Shown here: positions 7,320 through 45,428 of the stretch, piece after piece
How the letters are laid out: each line of letters opens with the position of its first letter
How positions within the stretch are numbered: position 1 is the first letter of the stretch
Assembly (NCBI GenBank): GCA_030647485.1
Contig: JAUSJT010000004.1
Coordinates: 237,088 to 301,087, forward strand
DNA length: 64,000 nucleotides
Direction: 5' to 3'
Origin: a bacterium
GTDB lineage: Bacteria > Patescibacteriota > Minisyncoccia > Minisyncoccales > UBA10102
The notes under the pieces: generated by a model
Told to the model about the DNA's origin: nothing
Database searches by the model: none
The model's input: the letters and a program-made list of their open reading frames with translations, nothing else
Translations under genes and position numbers: made by a program

Positions 7320-7808
7320 ATGAAACCAATCTTTCTAATCACCCTAACGCTTGGAGTCGTGGGAGGAATTCTGTTTATAACATTTCTTTCTAACCCAAAA
7401 GAGTCACAAGAAAACACTAGATTCGACAAGCTCACTACAAGTATGCCAACACAACAAAACGAACAGAGTAAAAATGAGCAAGCGCCCACAGAGCTCCAGA
7501 TAGAGGATATTGTAGTAGGTACGGGCGCCCAAGCACAGACAGGAAACACGGTATCCGTGCACTATACCGGAACCCTCCTTAATGGAACCAAATTTGATAG
7601 CTCCCTGGACAGAGGGACTCCTTTCTCATTCACCTTAGGGCAAAACAGCGTCATTGCAGGCTGGGAACAAGGAGTCTTGGGAATGAAAATTGGGGGAAAG
7701 AGAAAGCTCATCATTCCTCCTAGCTTAGCGTACGGACCAAGAGCAACGGGACCCATACCCGCCAACAGCACCCTTGTTTTTGAAGTAGAATTACTAAATG
7801 TAAAATAA
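7320..7808 (+). CDS. FKBP-type peptidyl-prolyl cis-trans isomerase, membrane anchored
   Basis: N-terminal TM helix. The FKBP core reads VSVHYTGTLLNGTKFDSSLDRGTPFSFTLGQNSVIAGWEQGVLGMKIGGKRKLIIPPSLAYG. Confidence 0.85.
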   Translation: MKPIFLITLTLGVVGGILFITFLSNPKESQENTRFDKLTTSMPTQQNEQSKNEQAPTELQIEDIVVGTGAQAQTGNTVSVHYTGTLLNGTKFDSSLDRGTPFSFTLGQNSVIAGWEQGVLGMKIGGKRKLIIPPSLAYGPRATGPIPANSTLVFEVELLNVK

Positions 7809-21627: not shown

Positions 21628-21702
21628 AGGGGTGTAGTTTAATGGACAGAACGCTTCGCTTATAGCGAAGAGACGGAGGTTCGAATCCTTCCACGCCTAC
21701 CA
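21628..21702 (+). tRNA. tRNA-Ile (anticodon UAU), CCA encoded
   Basis: Hand-folded cloverleaf. Acceptor AGGGGTG/CACGCCT has one G-G mismatch. D stem is GTTT/GAAC with a GG loop. Anticodon stem is CTTCG/CGAAG with loop CTTATAG. T arm is GGAGG-TTCGAAT-CCTTC. Confidence 0.8.
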
Positions 21703-30166: not shown

Positions 30167-30239
30167 AAAGCTATACCAGTTCGCATAATTATACTTAAGC
30201 GAATAGCTTATACCAGTTTTACACAAAACCACTTCTCCC

Positions 30240-31181
30240 ATGCAAAAATCACAAAAACCCCTCCCCCAGCATGTTTCTGATTTTTTGGACTGGTTAGAAA
30301 TTGAAAAAGGATTATCGTCAAAATCTCAAGAAAATTATTCCAGATTCATAAATAAATTTATTTCCTGGCTCAAAGATTCTAACCTCTCTTCTCTGACTCC
30401 CGACACTCTTACTCCCGACCATATCCGCCAATACCGTCTTTTTCTGGCTCGTAACCCTACCAAGCCCCTTAAGAAATCAACCCAGAACTATTACCTTATA
30501 GCTCTTAGAAGCCTCCTCAACTACTTTGCCGACAGAGATATAATCTCTTTACCATCAGAAAAGATAAAACTTGCTAGAGACAAGGAAGACCGCCAAGTTC
30601 GTTTCTTAACTCTAGAACAACTTCAGAGACTCTTTGATGCGCCAAACACTAAAATATTCCAGGGATTGCGCGATAGGACCATACTCGAAACCTTCTTTTC
30701 CACGGGAATGAGAATTTCAGAACTCGTAGCTCTTAATACAGAACAAATCAATATAAAACCCGATGCGGAAGAACTGGAGCTAACCATTACGGGAAAAGGC
30801 GGAAGGATACGCACCGTGTACTTCTCAGCCAGAACGCTCGAATGGCTCTACAGATACCTAAAAGAACGAAAAGACGTTGAGAATGCCCTTTTTGTGACCT
30901 ACAAAGGCAAGAAGAAGGAGCCGCACCGCATCACGCCCCGGGCTATTCAAAAAGCATTCAAAAAATACACGATCATTGCTGGAATTCCCCTATTCACCAC
31001 GCCTCATGTAATGCGCCATACATTCGCTACTGACCTCCTTTCGCAAGGTGTTGATCTGCGCACCATTCAGGAATTTCTGGGCCACAAAAGCATTACCGCT
31101 ACCCAAATCTATGCCCATGTCACAAGCCAAAAACTCCGCGAAATACATGAAAAGTTTCATAGTGGAAAGAATCTAAAATGA
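30240..31181 (+). CDS. Tyrosine recombinase, XerC/XerD-like
   Basis: SAM-like N-domain. Catalytic residues: R (GMRISELVAL), HVMRHTFAT (HxxR) and LGHKSITATQIYAHV (H...Y). Confidence 0.85.
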   Translation: MQKSQKPLPQHVSDFLDWLEIEKGLSSKSQENYSRFINKFISWLKDSNLSSLTPDTLTPDHIRQYRLFLARNPTKPLKKSTQNYYLIALRSLLNYFADRDIISLPSEKIKLARDKEDRQVRFLTLEQLQRLFDAPNTKIFQGLRDRTILETFFSTGMRISELVALNTEQINIKPDAEELELTITGKGGRIRTVYFSARTLEWLYRYLKERKDVENALFVTYKGKKKEPHRITPRAIQKAFKKYTIIAGIPLFTTPHVMRHTFATDLLSQGVDLRTIQEFLGHKSITATQIYAHVTSQKLREIHEKFHSGKNLK

Positions 31182-31720
31182 TTACTACTCCCCTATCTCC
31201 AGAATTTGTTGCGGGCCTGACTGCGGGCGAAGGATGCTTTGACTTGCAGTTTCATCGCGATGTTCGCAGAGAACGAAAAGGCAGCCCCGTTTACTATAGT
31301 TGGAAAGTTCAATTTGTTATAAATCTTAAGAATAAAGACCTAGAGCTTATTAAAAAGCTTCCTGAAGTGTTTGGATGTGGTACGGTCCACACTCCAATTG
31401 GCTATGCGCGATTTTCCGTACAGGATATAGATAATTTGTACCACATCGTTTTGCCATTTTTCCGAAAATATCCGCCGTACGGAAACAAACAAAAAGATTT
31501 TGAGCTATGGGCAGAAACTATAGAGATTCTTTATGCTAATAAATTTGTACGAAAACCTGCTCGAGGGAAACAAGGTTTTGCAAAAAAGGCATGGAAACGA
31601 ACATCCTTTCAAAGAATCCTTGAACTTCATAAGTTGATGCAACCCTACAAATCTATACGTCCTCAAGGATATAAATGGATTAAAGAAGCAGAAAGATTTG
31701 CCGAAACCCTAGAAGATTAA
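31178..31720 (+). CDS. LAGLIDADG-family homing endonuclease (single-motif type)
   Basis: FVAGLTAGEGCF is a LAGLIDADG motif near the N-terminus. 180 aa. ATGA overlap with the recombinase stop. Confidence 0.75.
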   Translation: MITTPLSPEFVAGLTAGEGCFDLQFHRDVRRERKGSPVYYSWKVQFVINLKNKDLELIKKLPEVFGCGTVHTPIGYARFSVQDIDNLYHIVLPFFRKYPPYGNKQKDFELWAETIEILYANKFVRKPARGKQGFAKKAWKRTSFQRILELHKLMQPYKSIRPQGYKWIKEAERFAETLED

Positions 31721-31724
31721 ACGC

Positions 31725-31772
31725 CTCCGCGACATTCATCGTCAATTCCACAGCGGCAAAAACCTCAAGTAA
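31725..31772 (+). pseudogene. Orphan copy 2 of the recombinase 3' end (…LRDIHRQFHSGKNLK*)
   Basis: Peptide is nearly identical to the real C-terminus …LREIHEKFHSGKNLK*. The nucleotides differ mainly at third-codon positions. Confidence 0.8.
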
Positions 31773-31798
31773 AACTAAGTCTCGCTTAGTTATCCACA
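31770..31798. repeat. 29-nt element TAAAACTAAG-TCTCG-CTTAGTTATCCACA (hairpin plus a perfect DnaA-box-like 9-mer)
   Basis: Arms are the reverse complement of 39677-39705, but the 5-nt loop is identical on the + strand. Confidence 0.8.
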
Positions 31799-31815
31799 AG
31801 AGTCTTCTCTGGGGC

Positions 31816-32100
31816 CTATAGACGAATCTTCTCTAACTCTTGCTGAACTATATCGGGAGAAGCCGTATAAATACGGATTGCCTGAACAGATGTGTTCCCG
31901 CGAACAGTCATTAACAACCCACTTGTACTCCTTTTGAACTTTACCCTCTTCGTTCCCCTCTGACCTGGGGTTGATTTGATAAAACCGAGAGATATCTTTG
32001 CAACCTCTGGCAGCTTTTCTGCTGCCCTTACCAAAGGTTCTGCCGCTTCAATGAGGGTTGTATGTGTTCCCCCTGACTTTTTTCCTTGCCACTTTGCCAT
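31816..32100 (-). CDS. Hypothetical protein (94 aa, basic)
   Basis: ORF 27 nt downstream of the methyltransferase on the same strand. No recognisable motif. Confidence 0.45.
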   Translation of the reverse strand: MAKWQGKKSGGTHTTLIEAAEPLVRAAEKLPEVAKISLGFIKSTPGQRGTKRVKFKRSTSGLLMTVRGNTSVQAIRIYTASPDIVQQELEKIRL

Positions 32101-32126
32101 ATTTTAACCTGAAATGTCGCACAATG

Positions 32127-32726
32127 TTAACCCTTTCGCACGAGAAAATGAAGATAGTTTTTTGATCCTGGTTTGAATGTTTCAAAATGAAAAGGCGTAA
32201 AACCGACTTCTTTGAGTAAAGATTCCACTTCTTCTTTCGTATAATATGCGAAGTATCGCGGAAGATTTACCCCTGAACTCTCACGATATCCCTCTGTATC
32301 GCCCTCGATAAGCCCCAAGCCAAAGATTCCGTCTTTCTTTAGCACCCTATGAATTTCCTTAAGCCCTGTCTGTACTTCTGATTTTGGAACATGAAGAAGT
32401 GTTGTGTAAGACCAAACTCCGTCAAAAGAGCCGTCGGGGAATGGAATACTATTGAAATCTCCCAACACAGACAAAAAGCCCTTCTCCTTGGTCATCGAAA
32501 TCATCGCCTCCGAAGCATCAAAGCAAGTTACATCCAGCCCTGCCCGCTGAAGAATGAGTGCATCCCTGCCCGGTCCACTTCCCACGTCTAATACCCTTCC
32601 TTTGGTAGGAATATTTTCGCAAAACTTGCGAATGAAAATATTGGGAAAAATATTCCAGAAATCTTTGGTTTCTTCATCATATTCTTTTGCAAGTTTATTG
32701 TAAGTATCTATAGTCTTCTTGTCCAT
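32127..32726 (-). CDS. Class I SAM-dependent methyltransferase
   Basis: VLDVGSGPGRDAL is motif I. 199 aa. Confidence 0.75.
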   Translation of the reverse strand: MDKKTIDTYNKLAKEYDEETKDFWNIFPNIFIRKFCENIPTKGRVLDVGSGPGRDALILQRAGLDVTCFDASEAMISMTKEKGFLSVLGDFNSIPFPDGSFDGVWSYTTLLHVPKSEVQTGLKEIHRVLKKDGIFGLGLIEGDTEGYRESSGVNLPRYFAYYTKEEVESLLKEVGFTPFHFETFKPGSKNYLHFLVRKG

Positions 32727-32760
32727 ATTGATACTTTATCAAAAAACCGCCTCCTTGGCG

Positions 32761-32781
32761 ATTTTAACTATCCCCTATTCC
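32761..32781 (-). terminator. Short-stem intrinsic terminator (TCGCC-aagga-GGCGG-TTTTTT on the - strand)
   Basis: 5-bp GC stem plus a T6 run. Homologous in design to 36634-36654 and 39618-39640. Confidence 0.45.
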
Positions 32782-32797
32782 GCGACATCCACCGCCA

Positions 32798-32845
32798 GTT
32801 TCATAGTGGAAAGAATTTAAAATAGATACCTCCTACCTTGGCTCT
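32798..32845 (+). pseudogene. Orphan copy 3 of the recombinase 3' end (…FRDIHRQFHSGKNLK*)
   Basis: Shares the 19-nt block GTTTCATAGTGGAAAGAAT with the real gene end. No upstream ORF is attached. Confidence 0.8.
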
Positions 32846-32910
32846 AATTTGGATAATGACGATGGGGTCTAGAGAAATGCGGTCGATTATTCAGTTTAGG
32901 GGTATTGAAT

Positions 32911-33729
32911 TTATAATAATATACTTATTTGTTTAACTAAACCTATTCGATAAGCATTGAAAGCTTTATAGTAAGTTTCTAAATACTCTAAGACTTCGTC
33001 GGGTGTAATTCCGTTTTCAAAATCAATATAATCAAGATCGCGGTAGTTTGCTTTTATTCGATACCAATAGAAAAAATCAATTAACATTAATTGCTCCGTT
33101 GTAATGAACTGCTTCTGTTCAGTCTGATGTTTCTTTGTACGCAAATTCCATTTTTTGCCAATTTTGGCATCATGTAATTTGTACTCCATTAGCTTTTTTG
33201 CTAAAGACTGAACGCATTCATTTTTCTGCCAATAATCACTCCGAGTATTCTGTCCAGCATGTATTGTGGGCATATTTCTTACCTGTGTCAGATTGTGTAC
33301 AACATTGAGATCACTTTGACTGAAAGAGATAATACCACTACTAACTAACCCATAAATCTTCTTTCGTATACCCGAATGCCCTCCTTTTCCGAATCCATAG
33401 GTACATCCATCAATAACATTCACTAGCACGCTTTCGAGATAATAAAGGGCGTAATAGCACTTCACAGGAAACCACGGAGCAACGATTACTGCAAACTCTG
33501 GGTCTTCTTTTGCTAATTCAATATCTTTCTTAATACTCTTTACTGTAACCTTACATAATTTTTGAAATCTCACTATTTCAACATTTTTCCTTACGGGAGT
33601 ACCGATTTTACTTGCCAAAAAATTATTAACCGACAACAACTTTTCTATACACCTGATGTAATTAAGGTGTGTACGAAAAGATGCTTTTGCAGAATCAAGC
33701 GGAGATGAGGGTCGAGTGAATATGGTCAT
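32911..33729 (-). CDS. Hypothetical protein co-operonic with the RM genes; possible HEPN-like nuclease
   Basis: 272 aa, 21 nt downstream of the S subunit. Contains VRNMPTIHAG (R-N-x4-H), which fits the HEPN Rx4-6H motif. Otherwise unrecognised. Confidence 0.4.
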   Translation of the reverse strand: MTIFTRPSSPLDSAKASFRTHLNYIRCIEKLLSVNNFLASKIGTPVRKNVEIVRFQKLCKVTVKSIKKDIELAKEDPEFAVIVAPWFPVKCYYALYYLESVLVNVIDGCTYGFGKGGHSGIRKKIYGLVSSGIISFSQSDLNVVHNLTQVRNMPTIHAGQNTRSDYWQKNECVQSLAKKLMEYKLHDAKIGKKWNLRTKKHQTEQKQFITTEQLMLIDFFYWYRIKANYRDLDYIDFENGITPDEVLEYLETYYKAFNAYRIGLVKQISILL

Positions 33730-33749
33730 TTGATCTCATCTCTAAATAG

Positions 33750-34697
33750 CTAGACGCACACTGAATATGGCAAAGACTTTATATAATCTTCCATAAAATG
33801 CCAATCTGGTTGATTGTCTTTTGAAGGAAGTTTTATGCCTCTATCTCGAATCCTTTCTTGACTAGCTTTTCTGCCATAGTTGTATCTATATTGTTCTTGG
33901 TTAAAAACCGTTACAAGGAATAAAGCAATGTACTTATTCATACTAAAATTTGGAATAAGTTTTTCAACATGATCACTGGCTGAAAAATTGTCAGGTTGAT
34001 ACGAACAATAACCAAGAACTGCGCTATCTACAGTTAAAACATTACCAGATTCTGTATACAAATCATAAAATCCTTCCACTCCATTATTAGTAGCTTGCGT
34101 TGTTACAAAGGGGTACTTACCAAAACCAATCTCTTGTAAATCTATAATTGATGTTGTCTTACTCCCTGTTATCTTGAACAAATCTTTTAGATTAAAATAT
34201 TGCCACTGATCGATATTGAGTTTTACTTTTTTATTGCTTAGTGGATTTGCGCTAATGTTTAGCAATTTATCAATATCTAATTTGAGCCATTTTACTGACA
34301 TTTCAGAAGGAACTAAGAGATGGTCGAGTGTGACATTAGCCTCTCTTCCATGTGATGTATATCGAAATCTATTTGATTGGATTGCCATGCAATAAAAAAC
34401 TTTCTCCTTGAAATCCATTTCCCTTCTAGGAGTAAGGACCTTAATATTTTGTGCAGTATAGAATGGTTCTTGCTGAACAAATGAACTCAAGAGATAGGTT
34501 CCGCCAAGGGTCACTGTAATTAAGCCGGCTGGGTAAGGCTCAAAGTTTAGGTCTTTCGAAACTTTTGCTACAACGCCTAGATTTTGACTACTTCTTGAAA
34601 TAAAATTGATTTCTGGGACGTCCAAATCCATTTTATATAAATCAAATTGATTTCCGTACTCAATATCAAAAATCGAATTTAGAGGTACTAATTTCAT
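33750..34697 (-). CDS. Restriction-modification specificity subunit (HsdS/BcgIB-like, two TRDs)
   Basis: 315 aa. Overlaps the upstream RM gene by 4 nt. The size and repeated half-structure are typical of S subunits. Confidence 0.7.
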   Translation of the reverse strand: MKLVPLNSIFDIEYGNQFDLYKMDLDVPEINFISRSSQNLGVVAKVSKDLNFEPYPAGLITVTLGGTYLLSSFVQQEPFYTAQNIKVLTPRREMDFKEKVFYCMAIQSNRFRYTSHGREANVTLDHLLVPSEMSVKWLKLDIDKLLNISANPLSNKKVKLNIDQWQYFNLKDLFKITGSKTTSIIDLQEIGFGKYPFVTTQATNNGVEGFYDLYTESGNVLTVDSAVLGYCSYQPDNFSASDHVEKLIPNFSMNKYIALFLVTVFNQEQYRYNYGRKASQERIRDRGIKLPSKDNQPDWHFMEDYIKSLPYSVCV

Positions 34698-36499
34698 AAA
34701 TTTTGCACCTTAAATGCAACATACTTCTTTACTTCTTGAATGAAAATATCATCACTAATGACTGAGTAGTCAGTTTTCATGTATGCTTCTGCACACCATT
34801 CCTCGTCTGGTCTTACAACCCTATTAATACTCAATCCTGCAAAATCTTCCTTATTCATGTAGGCACGAATCCATCTTTCTCTGATAGAATCCCACCGACC
34901 ATACACATTTACACGGCCCCTATTCTTTCGCTTTACGAAACCGTCATCTTTAAAATGCCCAAAAAATGTTTTCTTTCCAGCAGGGTGAGGTCTTTTTGCT
35001 GTGAAAACCATAATGCAAGAAACAACAGCAACTTTTGAATTAATAAACAATTCTTCCGGCATAGATAAAACTGCCTCAAGTGTATGTTGTTCAAGAAGCT
35101 TCTGCTTTAATTCAAGAATTTTCCCTGTTTGAGATAATGCCGCCTGCATAGGCACAATTGCTACTGTTTTTCCGCCTTGCTCAAGACATTCAAGATTGTT
35201 AAAGATAAATTCTAATTCCTCTATATCCTTCTTTTTATCCGATTTATATGGTGGGTTGAGTAATCCAACGGTTGGTTTTTTTTCTTTAACTTTCTCTACG
35301 ATGTCTTTATCGAAGCAACTTCCGTTTAAAATATTTGTTTTCCCATCTTGGTGAATAAACATATTCGAGCAAGCCAACGCAAAGATGTGTGATTTATTTT
35401 CAACTCCAATAAGCTGTTTTGCTTTTATTTGTTTTATTTTTTCTTGATCACCCTTAGCGTCCTGTATCATTAGTTTCATTGCGCTTACCAAGAAGCCACC
35501 TGTGCCAGTACAACTGTCATATACAACACTATCTTTATTTACCTCTCCCAATTTAGCCATAAACTCCGTAATGTGCGGAGGTGTAAGTACGATTCCTAGT
35601 CCCTTATCGCTGTTTGCATACCTCAAAAATTCAATATAAAGCTGACCAAGCACGTCAAAATACTCGTGTGTACGGATAAAATCATTTATGTTTTCGTCGA
35701 TATCTTTGATTAGGTCTCTAATATTTTTTATATTATCAACTAGACCATCAAGAATGGTAATTTGTTGATAAACAACTTTTAGATTTTCAATTTTATCATT
35801 TTCTAACTTTGCTTTTTCAAATTGATTTAACGCTGTATCAATGAGGAACCGGGCTAACTGTTTAGCGTCTGTGTAATCTTTATAGGCTTTCTTAAAGGCA
35901 CTATCTTCTAAAGCAATCAAAATCGCGCTAATGAGTAACGCTCTCAGATCTTCTTTAATCTGTAGGGTGTGTAATTTATCATTTAGGTCTTTAGAAAATG
36001 AAAGCAATTTGTCGTAATCTTGTCTAAATTTCTCAGGACTTTTCAGGTATCCTTGTAAATAATCATCCGGTGTTAAAAGTTTATTAGAGAATTTTTCTAC
36101 ACCTTTTTTCTCTCCCTTTAATTGTAGAAAATGAGATACTTTTAAGTCTCGTTCCGATTCTCCACTGATAGCGATCGATAGTACATCATATTCTTTTGTT
36201 AAGTACGAAGAATAAAGTAAAACACCATCCACAGCATATTTTTTGTACTGCAAATGATCCTTGCTTTCATGTTTAGTTACATCTGCTTTGCATTCAACAA
36301 TGATGAGTAAATCGGGGTTCTGTTTATATTGAATAATAAATTCAGGACTACCGCGACCCAAGCCATTTTTTGAAGCCGTAGAGAGAAGCTTCTTAATTTT
36401 AGGAGTATCTGAAGACTGCTCTTCAATAATGATGCTTTCAATATATTTTTTGAAATGGTCTCGAACGATATCTTCTGTTTTGCGTTCGTTTTTTGACAT
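34694..36499 (-). CDS. Fused endonuclease-methyltransferase (Type IIB BcgI-A-like / Type IIG-like) N6-adenine enzyme
   Basis: N-term SPEF-x-IVECKAD gives PE-x15-ExK. MTase motif I is VYDSCTGTGGFLV and motif IV is LLNPPYK. 601 aa. Confidence 0.75.
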   Translation of the reverse strand: MSKNERKTEDIVRDHFKKYIESIIIEEQSSDTPKIKKLLSTASKNGLGRGSPEFIIQYKQNPDLLIIVECKADVTKHESKDHLQYKKYAVDGVLLYSSYLTKEYDVLSIAISGESERDLKVSHFLQLKGEKKGVEKFSNKLLTPDDYLQGYLKSPEKFRQDYDKLLSFSKDLNDKLHTLQIKEDLRALLISAILIALEDSAFKKAYKDYTDAKQLARFLIDTALNQFEKAKLENDKIENLKVVYQQITILDGLVDNIKNIRDLIKDIDENINDFIRTHEYFDVLGQLYIEFLRYANSDKGLGIVLTPPHITEFMAKLGEVNKDSVVYDSCTGTGGFLVSAMKLMIQDAKGDQEKIKQIKAKQLIGVENKSHIFALACSNMFIHQDGKTNILNGSCFDKDIVEKVKEKKPTVGLLNPPYKSDKKKDIEELEFIFNNLECLEQGGKTVAIVPMQAALSQTGKILELKQKLLEQHTLEAVLSMPEELFINSKVAVVSCIMVFTAKRPHPAGKKTFFGHFKDDGFVKRKNRGRVNVYGRWDSIRERWIRAYMNKEDFAGLSINRVVRPDEEWCAEAYMKTDYSVISDDIFIQEVKKYVAFKVQNL

Positions 36500-36633
36500 A
36501 TCAATATTATATCAATAATGACCCCCAAGGGACAGGGGTAATTTTAGAGACTTCTCAATTATCCTTAGTTTAATTAGATTCAAAGTAGTATGTTTAACAG
36601 TAACGAAAGAATTCGAACTTCTTCAAGTCTATC

Positions 36634-36654
36634 AAAAAATCGCCTTCTCGGCAA
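36634..36654 (-). terminator. Short-stem intrinsic terminator (TTGCC-gagaa-GGCGA-TTTTTT on the - strand)
   Basis: Lies downstream of the doc operon. Flank CTATCAAAAAATCGCC resembles TTATCAAAAAACCGCC at 32757. Confidence 0.4.
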
Positions 36655-36745
36655 TACCTGGGTTGAAATGTCGCACAATACATTCGCTTTCGCTCAGTAT
36701 AAAGGTCGCTTTACATATATTCTCCGTCCTTAGTCTTATCTTCCC

Positions 36746-36773
36746 TTGACATACAACGGCGGGTTGCTATAAT
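36746..36773 (+). promoter_or_regulatory. Orphan consensus promoter TTGACA-16-TATAAT
   Basis: TTGACA at 36746-36751 and TATAAT at 36768-36773. No ORF follows. Confidence 0.5.
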
Positions 36774-36779
36774 GTAGCT

Positions 36780-36836
36780 ATTACCACGAAAAAGACCCTT
36801 ACAGGGTTCCGTCCCTGTCGGGGGCTTTTTCTTTTT
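36780..36836 (+). ncRNA. Candidate about 55-nt small RNA (promoter-to-terminator unit), function unknown
   Basis: Two hairpins (ACCCT-tac-AGGGT; GTCCC-tgtc-GGGGC), then TTTTTCTTTTT. It is convergent with the doc operon and antisense to its 3' flank. Confidence 0.35.
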
Positions 36837-36915: not shown

Positions 36916-37299
36916 CTATCCCCTCTTAGTATGCTTCTGCATCCAGCTTGCGATAACTTGCAAATCCAACTTCTTAACGGCAACTTTCAAAACAAAACTC
37001 TCTACTTCTTTATTCGTAGCTTTCAATTCATATCCATTGAGGAATAAAAAGCGTGCTGTGGCTCCAATAGCAGTTCTTTTGTTACCGTCAAGAAAAACAT
37101 GATATTGAACAAGAGATTGTAAATATGTTGCTGCTTTCAGAAGAATCCCCTTATAGAGTTCTTTCCCGCCAAAACGCCCTCTTGGCTTTTCAATAATAGA
37201 TTGCAAAAGATTGGTATCTCTTACTCCATGTAAACCACCGGTCTGATCGATAATTTCAGAATGAATAACCAGTAATTCTTGAGCGTTAAGATACCGCAT
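36916..37299 (-). CDS. doc: Doc (death-on-curing) Fic-fold toxin
   Basis: HVFLDGNKRTA is the Doc variant of the Fic motif HxFx(D/E)GNKR. 127 aa. Confidence 0.85.
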   Translation of the reverse strand: MRYLNAQELLVIHSEIIDQTGGLHGVRDTNLLQSIIEKPRGRFGGKELYKGILLKAATYLQSLVQYHVFLDGNKRTAIGATARFLFLNGYELKATNKEVESFVLKVAVKKLDLQVIASWMQKHTKRG

Positions 37300-39640: not shown

Positions 39641-39676
39641 TCTTGCTTTAACCGTTCTGCCTTAACCGAGTTAAGG

Positions 39677-39705
39677 TGTGGATAACTAAGTCTCGCTTAG
39701 TTTTA
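39677..39705. repeat. 29-nt element TGTGGATAACTAAG-TCTCG-CTTAGTTTTA (inverted partner of 31770-31798)
   Basis: 24/29 nt match the reverse complement of 31770-31798. The 5 mismatches are exactly the loop. Confidence 0.8.
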
Positions 39706-39772
39706 GAGCTTAAACTCTTCCTTATCGGTGGGGAGATCAAACTTGGCTTTTGTTTTGTTGAGCCGCCTATCA

Positions 39773-44078: not shown

Positions 44079-45428
44079 CTAGCGTGGTTGTGATACGACA
44101 GCGCCTGCTACGCAGAATATGTGCGAGATTCCTGGGCGAACGTACGCATCCGCATTAAAGCACTGTACCAACTTCCCCTCTCCGAGAACGTCTCTCGCGG
44201 TTCGGGAATCTTCTCTAGAGATGGGCATCTCGGAAAGCACCTCTTGCATATGGACGCTTCTCTCAACAGCATTGAATGCTGCCTGCTGCGTATACAGGTA
44301 CGCAGCGTCGTACGAGATACCCTCATTCATGAGGGTAATGCGGACCTGCTGAGTTGCCCAGACTCCGTGAGTTCTGTTTTCCAGATTGTCTCGCATGCGG
44401 TCCTTGAACACCACAAGGCGTGCCACGAGAGTTGTCGCCCGGGAAGCCATGTAGTGCACAAGCGCTGTTGCGTCAGGGAAAATGTGGCGTTCCACGCTGG
44501 ATTGGGAAATGTCCCGCGCTTCCGGAGTTGCCACATTCTCCATGGCAGTATGCGCATAGCCGCGGATAAGCCGCGGCATCCCCATAAGACGCTCAGTGAG
44601 TATGGGATTCTTCTTATGGGACATCGCAGAAGAACCCCGCTGGCGTTCAGACCGCGGCTCTTCCAGTTCGTGCGCATCGCTACGCATCATTTCCCAGAAG
44701 GTGCGGCTCATCTGTTCTATGGTGGCTGCGGCAATCGCGAGGTCCGCAAGGTACGCGGCGTGCCGGTCTCGCTGCAAGATCTGGGTCTCTGCGTGAGCTG
44801 GCTTGAGGCCGAGCTCCCGCAGTGCCAGGAACTCAATCTCAGGATTGATGCCGGCATACGTGCCCACGGCCCCGGAGATCTTGCCTTCGTTGAATTCTGC
44901 CTGCTCAAGGCGTGCAATACTACGTTGCATCGCCTCTGCGCAGACCAGGAGAAGCTGACCAAAGGTCGTGGGCTCTGCGTACTGCCCATGGGTTCTTGCG
45001 ATCATGAGGGTCCACTGATGCTCCTTCGCCTTTTGCGAAAGAGCGTCTCGGAGCCTCCGCAGCTCTTCCAGAACCAGGGTATTGGCTTCTCTGAGCATAA
45101 GTATGAGGGCGGGGTCCTCGATGTCATACGAGGTGACACCCTTGTGTAGCTCGGGGGCGAATTCTTCAACCCCTGCAGCGGTCAATGATTCCTGGACGGT
45201 AACGACAAAGGCGATCATATCCTGGTCAAACTCGGCTTCCAGCTCGTTGATCCTGGCTACAGTGAAACTGGCGTTCTTTGATATGGCGCTGAAAGCTTCG
45301 GGAGAAAGATCTCCAAGCTGCACCCGCGCCTTCAAAATAGCCAACTCCACCTTCAACCAGAACTCAAACTTGGCTTCCTCCCGACCCCACAACTGTCTCA
45401 TGGGTGCTAAAGTATACCGGGTAAGCAT
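44079..45428 (-). CDS. purB: Adenylosuccinate lyase
   Basis: 449 aa. GSSAMSHKKNP is the fumarate-lyase signature, with PurB-type termini. Locally high GC, about 57% in a sampled line. Confidence 0.9.
   Translation of the reverse strand: MLTRYTLAPMRQLWGREEAKFEFWLKVELAILKARVQLGDLSPEAFSAISKNASFTVARINELEAEFDQDMIAFVVTVQESLTAAGVEEFAPELHKGVTSYDIEDPALILMLREANTLVLEELRRLRDALSQKAKEHQWTLMIARTHGQYAEPTTFGQLLLVCAEAMQRSIARLEQAEFNEGKISGAVGTYAGINPEIEFLALRELGLKPAHAETQILQRDRHAAYLADLAIAAATIEQMSRTFWEMMRSDAHELEEPRSERQRGSSAMSHKKNPILTERLMGMPRLIRGYAHTAMENVATPEARDISQSSVERHIFPDATALVHYMASRATTLVARLVVFKDRMRDNLENRTHGVWATQQVRITLMNEGISYDAAYLYTQQAAFNAVERSVHMQEVLSEMPISREDSRTARDVLGEGKLVQCFNADAYVRPGISHIFCVAGAVVSQPR

Follow-up and report, generated by a model that had tools for sequence, protein, structure and literature searches.

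A LAGLIDADG endonuclease gene and repeated recombinase gene ends downstream of xer in a Patescibacterium

The stretch of DNA considered here (referred to as the window) comprises 64,000 nucleotides of a genome assigned to the Patescibacteriota (Minisyncoccia; Minisyncoccales; UBA10102; GenBank assembly GCA_030647485.1, contig JAUSJT010000004.1, positions 237,088 to 301,087 of the forward strand). It contains a gene for a Xer-type tyrosine recombinase (xer), the 3' end of which is found three times on the same strand, with a gene for a LAGLIDADG homing endonuclease lying between the first and the second copy. A preliminary description of this locus had been drawn up from the sequence, and we followed it up using comparison loci with xer or endonuclease genes from other assemblies (labelled L001, L023, L172 and so on). 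The features that carry the argument are the following, numbered by window position:

30178–30205, plus strand: dif-like site, AGTTCGCATAA-TTATAC-TTAAGCGAATA, in an 11-6-11 arrangement, 35 nt upstream of the xer start.
30240–31181, plus strand: Xer-type tyrosine recombinase gene (xer), 313 aa, with PF00589 and SAM-like N-terminal domains.
31134–31181, plus strand: copy 1, the working tail, LREIHEKFHSGKNLK up to the stop codon; the same peptide occurs in all relatives at least 94% identical, including the endonuclease-free L023.
31178–31720, plus strand: free-standing single-domain LAGLIDADG homing endonuclease gene, 180 aa (PF00961), its ATG overlapping the xer stop.
31719–31772, plus strand: copy 2, a foreign-type tail fragment, KRLRDIHRQFHSGKNLK up to the stop codon; its last 27 nt together with the next A form the invariant 28-nt core of a longer repeat, R.
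31773–31798, plus strand: continuation of R, with the hairpin AACTAAG-TCTCG-CTTAGTT and then TTATCCACA, where R is cut off (fold z-score -2.25, due to the hairpin).
32778–32825, plus strand: copy 3, a mosaic relic, FRDIHRQFHSGKNLK up to the stop codon.

The three tail copies are real, as the preliminary description had claimed. A repeat finder returned a single family of three 45-nt copies (31135–31179; 31726–31770, 67% identical to copy 1; 32779–32823, 82%) at spacings of 591 and 1053 nt, and the degenerate back-translation of FHSGKNLK matched exactly three times in the 64 kb, namely at the three tail copies, with no match in any of 100 shuffles. The positions first given for copies 1 and 2 stand, but copy 3, originally placed at 32798–32845, lies 20 nt further left, at 32778–32825. 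Copy 2 as earlier delimited (31725–31772) reads LRDIHRQFHSGKNLK up to the stop codon, and its homology starts two codons before that (KR, 31719). Copies 2 and 3 are offset from copy 1 by 591 and 1644 nt, both in frame, and deleting either 31134–31724 or 31134–32777 in silico leaves one intact open reading frame (ORF), which for the first of these deletions is what had been foreseen. The earlier account of the junctions likewise holds: the ATG of the endonuclease gene overlaps the xer stop (ATGA) and its own stop precedes copy 2, counted from 31725, by 4 nt. Copies 1 and 2 show 16 differences, 12 of them at third positions, and copies 2 and 3 show 15, of which 13 are at third positions (13 synonymous codon changes and one non-synonymous), in agreement with the proposal that copy 2 derives from a diverged allele instead of a recent duplication. 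The tail copies have neither a fold (z-scores 0.17 and -0.30) nor a dyad symmetry of their own.

An arrangement of this kind could in principle be produced if strain variants of the xer 3' end had been collapsed or chained during assembly, and several contigs do end inside the repeat. However, the order of xer, endonuclease and copy 2 is seen in four further assemblies and hence in five from different samples, and the independently assembled Logan contig from SRR13727527 reproduces window positions 31750–33948, and with them the passage from copy 2 to copy 3, at 100% identity, so that the junctions between copy 2, cargo and copy 3 are not peculiar to this assembly. As the contig of L172 moreover reads through five copies of R, an artefact is hardly credible.

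The closest NCBIfam families of the xer product are XerC and XerD, with scores under their cut-offs. Among 6307 homologues at E≤1e-20, the top 120 are 67–95% identical, and thousands of close homologues occur in Parcubacteria-type Patescibacteria, in which the tail pattern L(R/K)(E/D)IHxxFHSGxxLK is strongly conserved and the gene keeps its place in the order mur genes–gltX–tag–xer. The gene encodes the Xer-type recombinase of a Patescibacterium and belongs to the core genes of Patescibacteria. Between about 11 kb and 31.7 kb, almost all long ORFs lie on the plus strand, and between 31.8 kb and about 55 kb almost all lie on the minus strand. Gene orientation thus converges at xer, and the GC skew, which is local and weak, flips its sign near 30 kb. 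The dif-like site occurs only once in the window and neither at the tail copies nor in R. At up to seven mismatches it is present in 58 of 165 loci, nearly always 10–60 nt upstream of xer, and it is 100% identical over 30 nt in L164, while the xer DNA of that locus is 79% identical. It folds as a palindrome (z-score -3.5), and 10 of the 11 positions of its left arm agree with the XerC arm of E. coli. These features suggest a dif-xer module at the replication terminus, which bears on how the tail copies are to be interpreted, since the probable substrate of the recombinase then lies upstream of its gene. The possibility that the tail copies are themselves dif sites, or sites used by integrative mobile elements exploiting Xer (IMEX), was discarded, the single dif-like site of the window being located upstream of xer and none at the tail copies.

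The assignment of the ORF at 31178–31720 to the LAGLIDADG family, made without a database search, was upheld by the profile search, in which it matches PF00961 (LAGLIDADG_1) with an E value of 3.7e-17 over one Pfam stretch (12–114). It also matches both halves of two-domain enzymes of the I-PanMI/I-OnuI type, each separately, with an E value of 3e-26, and contains one motif, VAGLTAGEG, in which Glu18 aligns with the catalytic Glu (xxEG) of both I-PanMI domains. A single domain of about 170–180 aa implies that the enzyme probably acts as a homodimer.

Members of this endonuclease family (40 relatives from a protein search and 347 from a metagenome scan, 80 of those loci being kept) have a strong preference for one site. 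For 82 loci, at least 400 nt of upstream sequence was available. In 68 of these, a xer-family gene on the same strand ends less than 700 nt upstream, mostly within 0–50 nt; such a gene is further off in five and missing in nine. Its distribution at this site is patchy: the endonuclease gene is present at 4 of 80 species-representative xer loci and, among the closest relatives, in the window, L081, L082, L162 and L163 but not in L023 and L164. The recombinase of L023 is 94% identical to that of the window, and its xer DNA shares 91% identity with that of the endonuclease-bearing L081; for L164 the protein identity to the window is 84%. Endonuclease-free relatives, the existence of which had been predicted, were thus found, and presence or absence of the gene is polymorphic at one fixed site among related genomes. 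Other relatives have retained relics of deleted endonuclease genes. In L002, the xer stop is followed by 40 nt of the endonuclease start and then by GGTAAAAACCTAAAATAA, the last 18 nt of an orphan tail (that is, a tail fragment detached from a complete gene), and in L001 by 15 nt of the endonuclease start and a 22-codon orphan. We are hence dealing with a mobile element specialised on the xer 3' end that undergoes the usual gain, decay and loss of a homing endonuclease gene. Neither the endonuclease gene nor the R core was found in the viral contigs searched.

Several further observations concern the immediate surroundings of these genes. Two family members stand in tandem behind xer in L096, L098, L099, L100, L113 and L116, and in L109 (3445–3942) and L153 (3401–3964) a gene of another LAGLIDADG lineage (motif LAGFIDGEG; PF00961 E values 7e-9 and 6e-8) separates xer from the family member. 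The endonuclease ORF of L098, L099 and L116 runs on into the orphan tail, so that the protein ends with a Xer tail peptide. At L039 (1712–2237) and L013 (9388–9700), the place of the LAGLIDADG gene, from the xer stop to the orphan tail, is taken by small ORFs on the plus strand that are related to each other (ending ...VYLLVPSDEKLIEF...) and may represent another nuclease family at the same site; their assignment to the PD-(D/E)xK nucleases was dropped, given only a sub-threshold hint of an SfsA domain (E 0.24). Comparison of endonuclease with xer identity, tried as a test for jumping, gave a weak correlation (Spearman 0.23) and is not used as evidence, because the top discordant pair, L122 and L131, consists of syntenic loci with the 3' part of xer replaced and a paralogue inserted, and because the remaining discordant pairs set members of two different endonuclease subfamilies, which may occur in tandem, against each other. 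The pair is a curiosity in its own right: L122 (1564–3830) and L131 (2078–3091) are otherwise syntenic at about 86% DNA identity, with downstream endonucleases 96% identical, and in L122 the 3' two-thirds of xer have given way to diverged sequence plus a complete second recombinase paralogue. Sliding identity along xer, examined for co-conversion tracts, was without a clear breakpoint.

According to the preliminary description, copy 1 was imported and copy 2 is the native end of the gene, in analogy to fungal mitochondrial mobile ORFs. In this scenario, the element would have brought a recoded tail (copy 1) at its 5' side, displaced the native tail (copy 2), and found copy 3 already in place as a native tail that an earlier cassette, without endonuclease, had displaced. 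Layout and reading phase fit, but the polarity points the other way. Every relative at least 94% identical, including the endonuclease-free L023, ends in ...TSQKLREIHEKFHSGKNLK like copy 1, the peptide of which is that of L023. The orphans behind the endonuclease, in turn, read (VTN)KRLRDIHRQFHSGKNLK in the window, L081, L083, L085 and the L001 relic, although the own tails of these hosts differ from the orphan and from each other, and an orphan type with NKRLRDIHRQ occurs in hosts whose own tail reads SQKLREIHEK. Working tails of the copy-2 type belong to lineages that are only 55–65% identical, and the residues upstream of copy-2-type orphans (VTNKRLRD) are likewise those of distant lineages. 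The same orphan even follows the endonuclease behind a different recombinase: in L094, L108 and L110 the host gene is another paralogue (B; about 31% identity, tail ...KYHPLKE) and the orphan is of the A type, and in L133/L135, where the gene upstream of the endonuclease is an intact A gene, the endonuclease is flanked by a B-type tail fragment of 31 codons to the left and an A-type one to the right. For 24 of the 92 endonuclease copies, a tail-like peptide is encoded no more than 330 nt downstream (scores 28–68, as compared to a control maximum of 26). Tail fragments travel with the endonuclease, on both sides, and copy 1 is the working, clade-typical tail and copy 2 a foreign-type tail carried by the element.

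Some observations speak for a recoded tail nevertheless. The endonuclease-free L164 ends in a tail of the RQ type with 86% identity to copy 2; when xer of L081 is compared with that of L023, divergence is greatest in the tail (77% identity vs 91% gene-wide); and the EK tail type is common in a clade rich in endonuclease-bearing or relic loci. The expectation that endonuclease-free alleles end like copy 2 thus fails for L023 and is borne out only in part, by L164; together with the L081/L023 divergence, the L164 tail means that the working tail may have been exchanged during gain or loss of the element. Still, a displaced native tail does not account for a copy 2 core that occurs five times in L172 and as identical DNA in other genomes, nor for a second interval that consists of a conserved chromosomal gene placed there by deletion (both detailed below), and we regard this scenario as quite unlikely. 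Recoding of copy 1 for immunity was considered, the window and L081 having TTTCATAGTGG where L023 and copy 2 have TTCCACAGCGG; there was no consistent signal, and the idea was abandoned because the endonuclease-bearing L083 has TTCCACAGCGG in its working tail.

Copy 2 had been described as a lone orphan, yet it is the first part of a repeat, R, of about 120 nt that is present five times in a close relative. R consists of the 28-mer TTCCACAGCGGCAAAAACCTCAAGTAAA, then two hairpins with TTATCCACA between them, and then TTTAAnnTGAAA, the motif TGTCGCACAAT and ATTAA. Its start comprises the last 8–17 codons of a foreign-type xer tail, the ATTAA at its end contains the stop codon of the adjoining minus-strand gene, and the 7-bp stem of the first hairpin shows a compensatory T/A change among R copies. 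L081, L082, L039 and L172 (including the L172 copy at 7518) have the 24-mer TTCCACAGCGGCAAAAACCTCAAG of copy 2 in identical form; of these, L039 is endonuclease-free and has a recombinase only 65% identical. Further orphans differ from the 24-mer at one or two positions, and no working tail comes closer than three mismatches. In L172, the contig of which runs 8 kb past the endonuclease, all five R copies lie on the xer strand: the first after the endonuclease, the second between a hydrolase and an ABC transporter gene, and the others in the RecQ/DUF2268, DUF2268/amidohydrolase and amidohydrolase/DUF5680 gaps. In the four distal copies, homology begins exactly at TTCCAC, the F codon, right after an unrelated minus-strand terminator. 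The same edge recurs in L083, L039, L082, L109, L133, L088 and L090–L093, and at least 11 orphans begin exactly at the F codon; the orphans beside endonuclease genes have a variable left edge, 3 to 32 codons upstream of it. Tail-like DNA copies were encountered only downstream of xer and only on the xer strand (five vs none upstream, in 143 loci and over comparable lengths). Assemblies of L082, L162, L165 and L081 break inside the R core, which fits a multi-copy or strain-variable junction.

This array gives real support to an alternative that the preliminary description had raised itself, namely serial capture of cassettes at the gene terminus. In an integron-like process, R would serve as attachment site at which circular units of one gene plus R recombine, within the 28-nt core, by the action of Xer or another recombinase; each insertion would regenerate the tail and push older cassettes outward, and the endonuclease gene would be one such inserted unit. 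The five R copies of L172, in one orientation, each right after the stop of a minus-strand gene and near a tyrosine recombinase gene, are in line with this, as is the sharp and identical left edge (..A|TTCCAC) on unrelated terminators in at least 11 copies, which a fixed crossover point in a circle predicts. The invariant 28-nt core and the hairpins with their compensatory change, the genes other than endonucleases between tail copies in L081, L083, L013 and L039, and the two hairpin copies of the window, which share their core in direct orientation with outer flanks swapped, point in the same direction. On the other hand, the recombinase is a dif-linked Xer orthologue whose dif-like site is situated upstream of the gene and is missing from tails and R; the integron-integrase model TIGR02249 gives 104.7 bits against a cut-off of 265; and no other recombinase gene was detected among the ORFs of the region that were tested. 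Tail copies without dyad symmetry or own fold, the variable left edges (3–32 codons) of the long orphans beside the endonuclease, relics that keep the endonuclease start and hence speak for ordinary deletion instead of clean excision, and the restriction of arrays of three or more copies to one lineage are equally difficult to reconcile with it. We therefore consider such site-specific capture unlikely. A somewhat broader notion, that R is the attachment or homology module of a gene-cassette system peculiar to Patescibacteria, which would be driven by double-strand breaks from the endonuclease or by a recombinase at the TTCCAC edge and by which genomes would gain, lose and exchange genes at the 3' end of the dif-linked xer gene, is a tentative and rather doubtful possibility.

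Further to the right, the window contains additional features relating to R and to the second interval:

31816–32100, minus strand: DUF2103 gene, 94 aa; homologues carry PF09876, and one source names DUF2103.
32112–32125, plus strand: motif M, AAATGTCGCACAAT, the right-hand end of an R-type unit, overlapping a minus-strand promoter-like site just before DUF2103.
32127–32726, minus strand: S-adenosylmethionine (SAM)-dependent methyltransferase gene, 199 aa, with which a block begins that relatives lack between DUF2103 and cupin.
32760–32777, plus strand: possible, weak remnant of an endonuclease start, GATTTTAACTATCCCCTAT (compare ATGATTACTACTCCCCTAT at 31178).
36666–36679, plus strand: second motif M, belonging to a reduced R-type unit, directly after a minus-strand terminator hairpin (36630–36655).
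39655–39706, minus strand: inverted interior of R (hairpin 1, TTATCCACA, hairpin 2), located at the distal border of the variable region.

The interval between copies 2 and 3 does hold a minus-strand 94-aa ORF and a methyltransferase gene, as described before, but the further claim that they form a two-gene cassette is rejected because DUF2103 is a conserved chromosomal gene that was set beside copy 2 by deletion. The 94-aa ORF itself has no significant Pfam match; in relatives, DUF2103 is part of a conserved run MgsA...TspO-cupin-DUF2103, and in L172 it is located about 7.7 kb beyond the endonuclease. The first R of the window ends after TTATCCACA and is joined to the middle of the DUF2103 terminator, which in comparison with L166 and L172 amounts to a plain deletion. 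The methyltransferase gene belongs to a separate inserted block that extends to an HD-domain gene (32.1–38.2 kb) and lies between DUF2103 and cupin, where relatives have nothing. A mobile module made up of the two genes was accordingly discarded, their minus-strand orientation being the norm on this side of xer, and the interval is rearranged chromosome plus accessory DNA. A transposon or integrative element spanning 31.8–39.7 kb was also ruled out, as the island has no transposase or integrase; in Pfam searches, the ORFs tested between 31.2 and 39.7 kb gave no recombinase domain, and the 94-aa and 272-aa ORFs had no significant match. Copy 3 is a mosaic: its nucleotides 1–21 agree with copy 2 at 16 and with copy 1 at 13 of 21 positions, its nucleotides 22–48 with copy 1 at 24 and with copy 2 at 17 of 27, and the switch falls on the very nucleotide at which R begins with its sharp left edge. 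At copy 3, the G+C content falls from about 0.44 to 0.33. The possible remnant just to its left has clear equivalents in L002 (40 nt) and L001 (15 nt).

The partial R units without a tail core at 36630–36679 and, inverted, at 39655–39706 invite yet another explanation. R might be an autonomous small repeat, similar to a miniature inverted-repeat transposable element (MITE), a repetitive extragenic palindromic (REP) element or a terminator module, that contains or has captured a xer tail fragment and spreads independently of the endonuclease, the three copies of the window then representing three insertions. Internal hairpins, conserved ends and intergenic positions at gene 3' ends would suit such a repeat, as would the frequency of motif M on both sides of xer in some lineages. 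Yet tail-bearing copies are confined to the few kilobases right of xer and to the xer strand, with none in the other ~55 kb of the window or upstream (143 loci); there are no terminal inverted repeats and no target-site duplications; and R starts, on its left, at a codon boundary of the xer tail that is also the mosaic point of copy 3. Independent spread of R is, in our view, very unlikely.

Motif M may serve as an operator or as a site organising the terminus, or may be no more than a piece of R; the idea of a general promoter was discarded, since the motif overlaps promoter-like hexamers in some loci but not in most. The motif (A)TTGTCGCACAAT, 11–13 nt long, is a 5-3-5 palindrome with an asymmetric centre, found as an exact 12-mer in 31 of 161 loci. 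At one mismatch, it is dense around xer and endonuclease genes (e.g., L149 at 2143, 2400, 3825 and 3848), usually oriented one way left of xer and the other way right of it, and it often occurs just after the xer stop or 35–60 nt before gene starts. TTATCCACA is a perfect DnaA-box-like 9-mer, present in the window at 31790–31798 and 39682–39690 and four or five times in L172; as it lies near the apparent terminus and not the origin, it may be a coincidence or relate to titration of DnaA. An Rfam scan of 29–41 kb gave no match. Beside the inverted R interior (39655–39761), there is an orphan 18-codon 3' gene fragment (NKTKAKFDLPTDKEEFKL up to its stop codon), the small gene of which is intact in L023 at 95% DNA identity over 58 nt, making it a second orphaned gene end in the region.

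We favour an explanation in which the endonuclease drives the process through break repair and R serves as right-hand homology arm, and would put its probability at roughly 0.5. The endonuclease would cut the tails of endonuclease-free xer genes, probably near the Q|F codon boundary, where independent junctions pile up; the reconstructed empty site would in this case read ...VTNKRLRDIHRQFHSGKNLK, stop codon, hairpin. The break would then be repaired from an occupied allele, with the body of xer as left homology arm and R as right arm. R would let the element enter genomes with unrelated DNA downstream of xer, into which an element located behind the stop codon could otherwise not home, for want of a portable right arm. 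Repeated rounds, together with homologous recombination between R copies, would add, delete and reshuffle genes right of xer; 28 nt is about the minimum length for RecA-type exchange. The same process may have left copy 3 behind and produced the five-copy array of L172, and in the window a deletion would have joined the truncated first R (copy 2) to DUF2103, an accessory block having been inserted beyond it. Recurrent copying, or conversion from working tails, would explain the coding-like differences of the orphans.

A number of findings nonetheless weigh against endonuclease-driven repair. The sequence around the proposed breakpoint is not the pseudo-palindrome that homodimeric LAGLIDADG enzymes usually prefer. 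Copy 2 carries this breakpoint intact and should consequently itself be cut, unless recognition extends past its left edge. The 28-nt core does not vary between genomes with recombinases 65–78% identical and endonucleases 55–94% identical, so that it can hardly be a passive relic; recurrent copying is our conjectural explanation for this constancy. Endonuclease-free genomes (L039, L023) have cores as well, several distant family members are without the catalytic acidic residue, and the one-gene-one-repeat layout of L172 with its sharp edge is what one would expect of a site-specific recombinase. The remnant beside copy 3 is borderline, its alignment score corresponding to the 99.9th percentile of the window background. 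Finally, endonuclease identity tracks xer identity in the clade of the window (0.95/0.94 and 0.78/0.75), so that inheritance of the endonuclease may there be mostly vertical with losses.

Other features of the window lie further from the tail copies. A low-G+C island (0.32–0.36) at 32911–36499 on the minus strand, absent from relatives, encodes a fused restriction-methylase of 601 aa (Type IIG model, E 1e-159) along with a specificity subunit and a 272-aa protein that has no annotation, and is followed by a Fic/Doc gene (36916–37299) and, further along, the HD-domain gene. Between the Fic gene and the restriction-modification genes, a plus-strand promoter of consensus sequence (TTGACA-17-TATAAT) and a strong hairpin terminator (-25 kcal/mol, z-score -3.8) at 36748–36835 predict a transcript of about 55 nt, a candidate small RNA without Rfam match. 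A Lyase_1-family gene at 44079–45428 (minus strand), with a G+C content of 0.55–0.60 as compared to about 0.43 and a long antisense ORF, is likely a recent foreign acquisition, and a tRNA-Ile gene at 21628–21702 has the anticodon UAU, which is uncommon in bacteria.

If endonuclease-driven repair with a portable arm holds, the locus illustrates how a selfish nuclease can invade a conserved gene with non-conserved downstream DNA by carrying its own right homology arm, which would explain both the variable terminus-proximal flank of xer in these small genomes and the tendency of metagenome assemblies to break at the xer 3' end. The array of L172 may reflect a new mechanism of cassette exchange in a phylum with few known mobile elements; should the cassette reading prove true, it would be an integron-like accretion site at the replication terminus that follows a different enzyme logic. 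In addition, compact nucleases whose targets could be determined may be drawn from the endonuclease family, and the dif-like site just ahead of xer opens a way to study chromosome dimer resolution in Patescibacteria.

Among known systems, the closest in layout are mobile endonuclease ORFs with C-terminal duplication in fungal mitochondria, described for atp6 of Allomyces and for atp6, atp9, cox2 and nad3 of Glomus (PMC3630166). There as here, a LAGLIDADG ORF directly follows a complete host gene, a C-terminal segment is duplicated downstream on the same strand, the copies differ mostly synonymously, and presence of the ORF varies between close relatives. In the mitochondrial cases, however, the upstream copy is foreign and the downstream copy native, whereas here the downstream copy is foreign and portable and the upstream one clade-typical; moreover, the present case concerns a bacterial chromosome, with the downstream copy part of a longer structured repeat in up to five copies. 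The likeness to Allomyces atp6 drawn in the preliminary description is thus apt as far as the general layout goes and breaks down at the polarity, copy 1 having the peptide of L023, which is why we do not file the locus as a member of this group. In the literature, we found no report of such an endonuclease in a bacterial chromosomal gene, nor of a LAGLIDADG or other homing endonuclease family on xer. LAGLIDADG endonucleases have been described from insertions in rRNA genes of bacteria of the candidate phyla radiation (CPR; PMC11270868), that is, from the same phylum and enzyme superfamily and with a similarly patchy occurrence, but there they reside in rRNA gene introns, and a search through the full text of that study gave no hit for recombinases, Xer or free-standing genes.

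With integrons, the L172 locus shares a tyrosine recombinase gene beside genes of the same orientation, each followed by a structured repeat with a conserved end. It differs in that the recombinase is a Xer orthologue without integron-integrase signature, that its gene converges on the array instead of diverging from it, and that the repeat starts with the recombinase's own last codons and has no attC-like long imperfect palindrome: by eye, 12 of 28 positions match between the R core and the reverse complement of the M end, and R forms two short local hairpins with no end-to-end pairing. Single-gene units plus repeat are arrayed in L172 (five units), but several genes lie between copies in the window and in L083. 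Islands that insert at gene 3' ends rebuild the gene and can accrete in tandem, and phage Mx8 has its attP inside int. Such islands resemble the present case by direct repeats of a gene end that flank inserted DNA, an intact gene and older insertions further out; they differ by an element-borne integrase, which is lacking here, and by repeats that do not diverge synonymously, as those of the window do apart from the R 28-mer. IMEX insertions are set apart by flanking dif-like sites, whereas the single site here lies upstream of xer. As a matter of context, the streptococcal xerS-difSL module also has a recombinase gene that immediately adjoins its dif-like site at the terminus, although the site of the window is upstream of xer and its 11-6-11 geometry is close to that of classical dif.

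The seg and mob genes of phage T4 are free-standing homing endonuclease genes that spread by intronless homing. Nuclease genes have also been reported at boundaries of genetic exchange in phages (bioRxiv 10.1101/2023.03.23.533998). As in these phage systems, the endonuclease gene of the window sits between genes and not in an intron or intein, and two-sided homology with co-conversion of flanks would apply to both; yet the phage genes need conserved neighbours on either side, whereas the right flank in the present case is hypervariable and the element apparently brings its own right arm.

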